Under the pieces are notes generated by a model. That model searched no databases and had not been told where the DNA came from. It saw nothing but the letters and a program-made list of their open reading frames with translations. The position numbers were made by a program, and so were the translations under genes. Shown here piece by piece: positions 31,986 to 32,131 of a stretch of DNA of 64,000 bases. Each line of letters starts with the position of its first letter. The first letter of the stretch is position 1. Source of the DNA: Escherichia coli 042 (GTDB lineage Bacteria; Pseudomonadota; Gammaproteobacteria; Enterobacterales; Enterobacteriaceae); the NCBI RefSeq assembly GCF_000027125.1, contig NC_017626.1; one strand, given 5' to 3'.

Positions 31986-32012
31986 TTATCGTCTGTCGTA
32001 AAACAACCTTTA
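31986..32012 (-). promoter_or_regulatory. sigma-28 class 3 promoter of fliC
   Basis: Reverse strand reads TAAAGGTT-N11-GACGATAA, about 75 nt upstream of the fliC ATG. Confidence 0.7.
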
Positions 32013-32104
32013 GAATTTTTTTCACAAACAGCCATTTTTTGTTAGTCGCCGAAATACTCTTTTCTCTGCCCCTTATTCCCGCTATTAAAAAAAACAATTA
32101 AACG

Positions 32105-32131
32105 TAAACTTTGCGCAATTCAGGCCGATAA
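32105..32131 (+). promoter_or_regulatory. sigma-28 class 3 promoter of fliDST
   Basis: Forward strand reads TAAACTTT-N11-GCCGATAA, about 45 nt upstream of fliD. Confidence 0.7.

Follow-up and report, generated by a model that had tools for sequence, protein, structure and literature searches.

Evidence for the class 3 promoters of fliC and fliDST in Escherichia coli comes from ChIP-seq, RNA-seq, reporter fusions, in vitro transcription and analyses of conservation. For K-12 MG1655, the motifs underlying 52 FliA (sigma-28) ChIP-seq peaks are given in Table 2 of Fitzgerald et al. 2014 (PMC4183435). The strongest of these 52 peaks was fliC (score 110), and the scores for motA, fliA and fliL were 101, 91 and 18, respectively (PMC4183435). 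Deletion of fliA reduced the RNA-seq signal of fliC from 2319 to 11 and that of tar from 251 to 0 (PMC4183435), and the action of sigma-28 RNA polymerase on fliCp and tarp has been followed in vitro by transcription, gel shift and DNase footprint. Well-characterised flagellar FliA promoters are conserved and initiate transcription 18–22 bp downstream of the motif centre. At aer, primer extension mapped initiation 6 bp beyond the -10 octamer.

Here, we compared these systems with the fliC-fliD region of E. coli 042, using a stretch of 64,000 nucleotides (hereafter, the window). With a probability of roughly 0.95, the fliC and fliDST motifs in this window are the canonical divergent FliA (sigma-28) class 3 promoter pair of E. 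coli. This reading builds on sequence, statistics, conservation and identity to K-12 that were established here, whilst FliA occupancy, FliA dependence and in vitro transcription are taken from the K-12 literature.

The divergent fliC-fliD region

The window covers part of an E. coli chromosome and, by synteny with annotated genomes, retains the K-12 gene order from tar to beyond RseX. This included tar, cheW, cheA, motB, motA, flhC and flhD, then fliZ, fliA and fliC, and onward fliDST, fliE to fliR, rcsA, the DsrA sRNA, dcm and the RseX sRNA. The genes fliC, fliD, fliS, fliT, fliA and tar were likewise identified by their synteny with annotated genomes of E. coli. The fliC ORF (30245..31909, minus strand; ATG at 31909) encodes a 554-aa flagellin allele. 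On the other side of the gap, fliD (32175-33581, plus strand; ATG at 32175) and fliS (33606-34016, plus strand) carried four and one amino acid differences relative to K-12, respectively, and were followed by fliT (34016-34381, plus strand), the third gene of fliDST. The translation of fliA, which encodes sigma-28 (29206..29925, minus strand), was identical to K-12 FliA at 239/239 residues.

Several features of the surrounding region were recorded alongside. The flagellin of strain 118UI and others was 100% identical to the 554-aa FliC of the window, and 174 genomes matched this fliC allele at ≥99% identity. Strain 118UI is a urine isolate and, outside fliC, the region was only 98.9% identical to it. 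The flhD-uspC gap was 771 bp. The yedK-fliE stretch (38901-40900) looked decayed, containing an apparently truncated yedL (131-aa ORF), a DUF5503-like ORF fragment and an integrase remnant, each of which is annotated as a pseudogene in 118UI. At the same site, other strains (for example at locus L001) possessed an IS200/IS605 element together with ybcM-ybcL-emrE instead.

The start codons of fliC (31909) and fliD (32175) enclose exactly 265 bp, the length that an earlier note on this DNA had given for the divergent region. The two promoter motifs that it had placed there were recovered both by reading the sequence and by pattern search. The fliC sigma-28 (class 3) promoter (31986..32012, minus strand) reads TAAAGGTT-GTTTTACGACA-GACGATAA, with the -35 element TAAAGGTT at 32005-32012, an 11-nt spacer and the -10 element GACGATAA at 31986-31993; 75 nt separate the end of its 28-mer from the start codon. 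The fliDST sigma-28 (class 3) promoter (32105..32131, plus strand) reads TAAACTTT-GCGCAATTCAG-GCCGATAA, with the -35 element TAAACTTT at 32105-32112, an 11-nt spacer and the -10 element GCCGATAA at 32124-32131, and here the distance from 28-mer to start codon is 42 nt. The two -35 elements are divergently oriented with 92 bp between them. Compared with the consensus (-35 TAAAGTTT, 11-nt spacer, -10 GCCGATAA; taken from PMC2859248), 14/16 positions agreed at fliC and 15/16 at fliD.

Divergence from K-12 was slight. The fliCp of MG1655 (ChIP-seq motif TAAAGGTTGTTTTACGACAGACGATAAC, PMC4183435) matches the window in its 28-mer, in its orientation and in lying 75 nt from the ATG, and only two bases differ across the whole 265-bp gap. 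The coding allele below the promoter does differ, K-12 possessing the 498-aa H48 flagellin in place of the 554-aa form. Among the motifs in Table 2 of PMC4183435, those of fliC and tar were identical to the corresponding 28-mers of the window and that of fliDST differed by one base. In K-12, these fliC, tar and fliDST sequences have been linked to in vivo FliA-RNA polymerase occupancy and FliA-dependent transcription by ChIP-seq, RNA-seq and qRT-PCR. Since FliA itself is unchanged at all 239 residues, the K-12 binding data transfer directly to this strain.

Applying the published spacing rules, the fliC transcript would start at ~31976-31981 (minus strand), giving a predicted 5' leader of ~67-72 nt (31910..31981, minus strand). 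On the same grounds, the class 3 start of fliD would fall at ~32136-32141 (plus strand), with a predicted leader of ~34-39 nt (32136..32174, plus strand). The fliC leader contained an invariant UGACGGCGA block and, near its 5' end, two small hairpins (CGGC-loop-GCCG and GGGY-loop-RCCC) that were conserved across genera. These hairpins could represent a stabilising or regulatory element; a functional RNA element was considered for this leader and set aside as too weak, given a single covarying pair. Just upstream of the fliC -35 element lies a conserved A-tract (32016..32023, minus strand; a T-run on the plus strand), four T positions of which were invariant among 19 aligned sequences, and this tract is possibly UP-element-like.

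Motif strength and the other FliA sites of the window

To place the two motifs in context, matches to the consensus were counted over the 64-kb window and in 100 dinucleotide shuffles. With two or fewer mismatches, four matches were found against 0.01 expected, and all four lay upstream of a class 3 operon; with three or fewer, there were five against 0.56 expected. We also scored the window with a weight matrix built from 43 K-12 FliA ChIP-seq sites, all located outside the window. The highest score amongst the flagellar sites was that of tar (26.6 bits), followed by motA (22.5 bits), fliD (20.7 bits), fliA (15.8 bits) and finally fliC and fliL (12.6 bits each). In simulated sequences the mean maximum was 14.9 bits, and ~3.7 chance hits above 12 bits were obtained per 64 kb. 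The earlier description of both divergent promoters as near-perfect therefore suits fliD, as it does tar, and is generous for fliC, whose score is of a size that 64 kb can yield by chance. Judged by sequence, the fliC site is no more than moderate because an A replaces the nearly invariant C of GCCGATAA; it owes its credibility to where it lies, to its conservation and to the published binding data.

The tar-tap-cheRBYZ promoter (1647..1673, minus strand) reads TAAAGTTT-CCCCCCTCCTT-GCCGATAA, matching the consensus at 16/16 positions. It ends 31 nt before the ATG at 1615 (30 nt between the end of the 28-mer and the start codon), which bears out the earlier mention of a third exact match ahead of tar. 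A match to Rfam model C0465, a candidate sRNA of unknown function, was also seen in the cheW-tar gap (1663-1740, plus strand; 100 bits), on the strand opposite tar and overlapping the tar -35 element. The sigma-28 promoter of motAB-cheAW and MotR (6232..6258, minus strand) is located inside flhC, and its 28-mer is identical to that of K-12. In E. coli, the tar and motA promoters share the architecture of fliC and fliD (8-bp -35, 11-nt spacer, 8-bp -10), and differ from them in being single and unidirectional and, for motA, in lying within the flhC coding sequence. The fliAZ promoter (29950..29977, minus strand) combines a poor -35 element with the -10 element GCCGATAA, 24 nt upstream of fliA. 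The FliA site of fliLMNOPQR (47855..47882, plus strand) belongs to a dual class 2/3 promoter and is identical to the K-12 motif. In total, the 28-mers of tar, motA, fliA, fliC and fliL were unchanged between the window and MG1655. The three FliA promoters listed in the earlier note (fliC, fliD and tar) were thus correct and represent half of the six found, with motA, fliA and fliL having been missed. The fliC, fliD and tar sites each displayed the elements, the 11-nt spacer, the short leader and the orientation of sigma-28 class 3 promoters.

Two further sites were noted. The sequence TAACGTATTTTATAGCACTGCCGATATC (23821-23848, plus strand), inside yecU and 105 nt upstream of yecF, scored 17.8 bits and so outscored the real fliC, fliA and fliL sites on the FliA weight matrix. 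We considered it as a new FliA promoter for yecF and rejected it; the site is identical in K-12, is absent from the 52 ChIP-seq peaks and is probably inert. A high-scoring site that is unoccupied in K-12 indicates that motif quality alone does not predict function. Within otsA, an intragenic site (9465-9492, plus strand) whose K-12 -10 element is GCCGATAA was mutated to GGCGATAA in the window. The K-12 site is weak (ChIP score 2), and the mutation fits the published view of intragenic FliA sites as non-conserved.

These scores bear on the possibility that the fliC and fliDST motifs occur by chance in AT-rich intergenic sequence, with the real promoters elsewhere. Such an interpretation could draw on the modest fliC score, given the frequency of chance hits above 12 bits, and on the apparently inert 23821 site that scores higher. 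It is contradicted by the excess of matches with two or fewer mismatches, by the identity of these sequences to top FliA ChIP-seq peaks in K-12, and by the lack of any sigma-70 consensus-like promoter in 31700-32400. Together with the divergence of the spacers around octamers that stay invariant across genera (described below), this leaves the interpretation effectively refuted already, with a negligible probability.

Conservation across genera and among E. coli alleles

We aligned the gap in 19 sequences from E. coli, Kluyvera, Pluralibacter, Citrobacter, Enterobacter, Pantoea, Erwinia and Izhakiella. The four promoter octamers were 99-100% conserved, compared with 51% for the spacers and 72% for the whole gap; for fliC alone, both octamers were 100% conserved and the spacer 51%. 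Invariant octamers combined with drifting spacers are the footprint to be expected of functional promoter elements.

A FliD scan of species-representative genomes returned 41 loci, of which 39, including the window and an ST131-type locus, were usable. The fliD -10 element GCCGATAA was invariant (39/39), the -35 element TAAACTTT occurred in 37/39, and the 28-mer lay 40-48 nt from the ATG at every locus, with 34 different spacers represented. At fliC, the site TAAAGGTT-N11-GACGATAA was present in 20/39 loci, 72-79 nt from the ATG. The remaining 19, Pantoea-type loci possessed TAAAGA(A/T)G-N11-GGCGATAA ~156 nt from the ATG.

Within E. coli, the fliC-fliD gap occurred as three alleles that have diverged deeply (window 31910-32174; L002:2500-2746; L046:4301-4554). 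Allele A, that of the window, K-12 and O157, occurred in ~3187 genomes at ≥90% identity. Allele B (ST131 type; ~1326 genomes) was ~70% identical to A and carried a 19-bp deletion, and allele C (NCTC9041 type; ~870 genomes) gave no blastn alignment to A. A sigma-28 promoter pair was found at homologous positions in all three. In allele B the four octamers were the same and both spacers had been rewritten; in allele C the fliD octamers were unchanged and the fliC promoter was TAAAGTTC-N11-GCCGATAC. This last sequence contradicts a rule suggested by the 39 loci, where the fliC -10 always lacks the consensus C at its second base (GACGATAA or GGCGATAA, 39/39), and the rule was discarded. During recombination, the gap alleles are probably transferred together with fliC and fliD.

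Some public bins encountered in these searches were apparently mislabelled or contaminated (L003, L041, L007). Contigs assigned to a 'Collinsella' MAG and to 'Pasteurellaceae' carried 99% E. coli fliD, and a contig of 'Chryseobacterium sp. 18061' carried a Citrobacter-like fliC-fliD locus.

Conservation of the octamers might instead reflect a function other than FliA binding, either for another DNA-binding protein or as the target of a TldR phage repressor. In Enterobacter, the guide RNAs of prophage TldR target the host fliC -10 region adjoining GTTAT (PMC10705468), and the window resembles these promoters in its homologous -10 region and in the GTTAT that adjoins the fliC -10 element (31985-31989, plus strand). 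However, a phage repressor exploits a site that is already conserved and leaves the conservation in the host unexplained, and these octamers also occur at tar, motA and fliD and fit the consensus for FliA. Neither the ORF list nor the annotation of related strains by synteny revealed a tldR or TnpB-like gene in the window. Unlike the TldR-targeted Enterobacter case, the window has neither tldR nor a prophage flagellin locus, and therefore nothing suggests such repression here. We consider it very improbable that the octamers are kept mainly for a non-FliA function.

Dual regulation of fliDST and the first base of its -10 element

Although the fliC and fliDST motifs are best read as a class 3 pair, the two operons would not depend on them equally. 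After completion of the hook-basal body and export of the anti-sigma factor FlgM, FliA-RNA polymerase would become active, with FliA supplied by a gene 2 kb away in the same window. Polymerase at TAAAGGTT-N11-GACGATAA on the minus strand would produce fliC mRNA from ~70 nt upstream of the ATG, and polymerase at TAAACTTT-N11-GCCGATAA on the plus strand would produce fliDST mRNA from ~36 nt upstream of the fliD ATG. fliC would rely near-totally on its sigma-28 promoter. fliDST would also possess, within this upstream region, an FlhDC-activated promoter of the sigma-70 (class 2) type, so that its sigma-28 promoter would act as a second, later or repair-time input.

The K-12 data illustrate this difference. 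Expression of fliD fell from 633 to 3 without flhD and only to 356 without fliA. FlhDC occupancy at the K-12 fliD promoter was positive by ChIP-qPCR, and the K-12 authors concluded that FlhDC promoters give most transcription of dual-regulated genes in LB. The earlier description of the sigma-28 promoter as driving fliDST consequently needs qualifying; the sigma-28 site is present, but the operon is dual-regulated and deletion of fliA in K-12 cuts its expression less than 2-fold.

Between the two sigma-28 -35 elements lies a candidate FlhDC box for the fliD class 2 promoter (32044..32086, no strand assigned; AGTCGCCGAAATACTC-N11-CCTTATTCCCGCTATT). The published FlhDC consensus (AAYGSSNNAAATAGCG-N10-12-CGCTATTTNNSSCRTT) consists of two 16-bp imperfect inverted repeats 10-12 bp apart. 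The candidate matched it at 19/28 positions with an 11-bp spacer, a score for which the window held 29 equally good matches. Scanning with the consensus also recovered regions upstream of yecR, fliE/fliF and fliL, and the core positions of the candidate box (GAAAT, TATTC, ATT) were invariant or nearly so across genera. Because the consensus is so degenerate (29 hits at ≥19/28), the assignment of 32044-32086 as the FlhDC box of the fliD class 2 promoter is only probable. A sigma-70 consensus scan of 31700-32400 found no class 2 fliD promoter, as expected of a promoter that is activator-dependent. Judging from the geometry, TAAACT (32105-32110) within the fliD -35 element, which follows the FlhDC-like box by ~20 nt, may also serve as the -10 hexamer of the class 2 promoter. 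If TAAACT has both roles, sigma-28 and sigma-70 polymerase would be in competition for one stretch of DNA. A similar dual use of a sigma-28 -35 element has been suggested for aer.

In light of this dual control, the fliDST sigma-28 site could be occupied and yet of little use in ordinary growth, contributing only during swarming or filament repair. The weak effect of fliA deletion relative to that of flhD, the FlhDC occupancy at fliD, the predominance of FlhDC promoters in LB and the conserved core of the FlhDC-like box all speak for such a minor role. Against it, the fliD sigma-28 elements are the most strictly conserved bases of the gap and are therefore under strong selection, and overexpression of fliA in an flhD deletion restores fliD expression in K-12. 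The first base of the fliD -10 element also counts against it, being the non-consensus A in K-12 and the consensus G in the window. Overall, we rate a minor contribution as somewhat short of an even chance; it complements the identification of the motifs as a class 3 promoter pair rather than excluding it.

The base in question is one of the two gap differences from K-12. The fliDST promoter of MG1655 (motif TAAACTTTGCGCAATTCAGACCGATAAC) shares its position, -35 element, spacer and downstream sequence with the window, and differs at the first -10 base, where the window has G32124 (GCCGATAA, consensus) and K-12 an A (ACCGATAA). The second difference, at base 32025, lies upstream of the FlhDC-box-like region, which is itself unchanged. 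A 41-mer of the window containing G32124 was found exactly in 2556 E. coli genomes, with a further 631 genomes having one mismatch anywhere within it, and G occupied the first fliD -10 base in all other genera examined. Comparison of these sequences suggests that the A of K-12 may be a weakened derived state. Given the A in K-12 and the G in the window, K-12 may understate the class 3 share. That K-12 is an outlier whose data understate the class 3 input to fliDST, which supposes that the first G matters to sigma-28, is nevertheless a tentative proposal that we think rather unlikely. If true, the FliA share of fliDST expression in typical E. coli would be greater than concluded from K-12.

Overall, the class 3 promoters of fliC and fliDST described here are textbook and already known, there is no departure from the known picture, and the finding has little significance beyond annotation. 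Two aspects may be of modest use. One is the clean phylogenetic footprint, which takes in at least eight genera as well as the three diverged alleles of E. coli. The other is that the K-12 fliD -10 element is off consensus at a position where G is found in the window, in the other genera examined and in at least 2556 genomes of E. coli. The earlier conclusion that the wiring of the FliA regulon is intact holds as far as the window shows, with FliA equal to that of K-12, five 28-mers unchanged and fliD nearer the consensus; its scope is the window, which does not include flgM or the other class 3 operons. The strain has thus kept the standard late-flagellar promoter set (fliC, fliDST, tar, motA, fliA and fliL) together with an intact fliA, which is consistent with a functional motility regulon.
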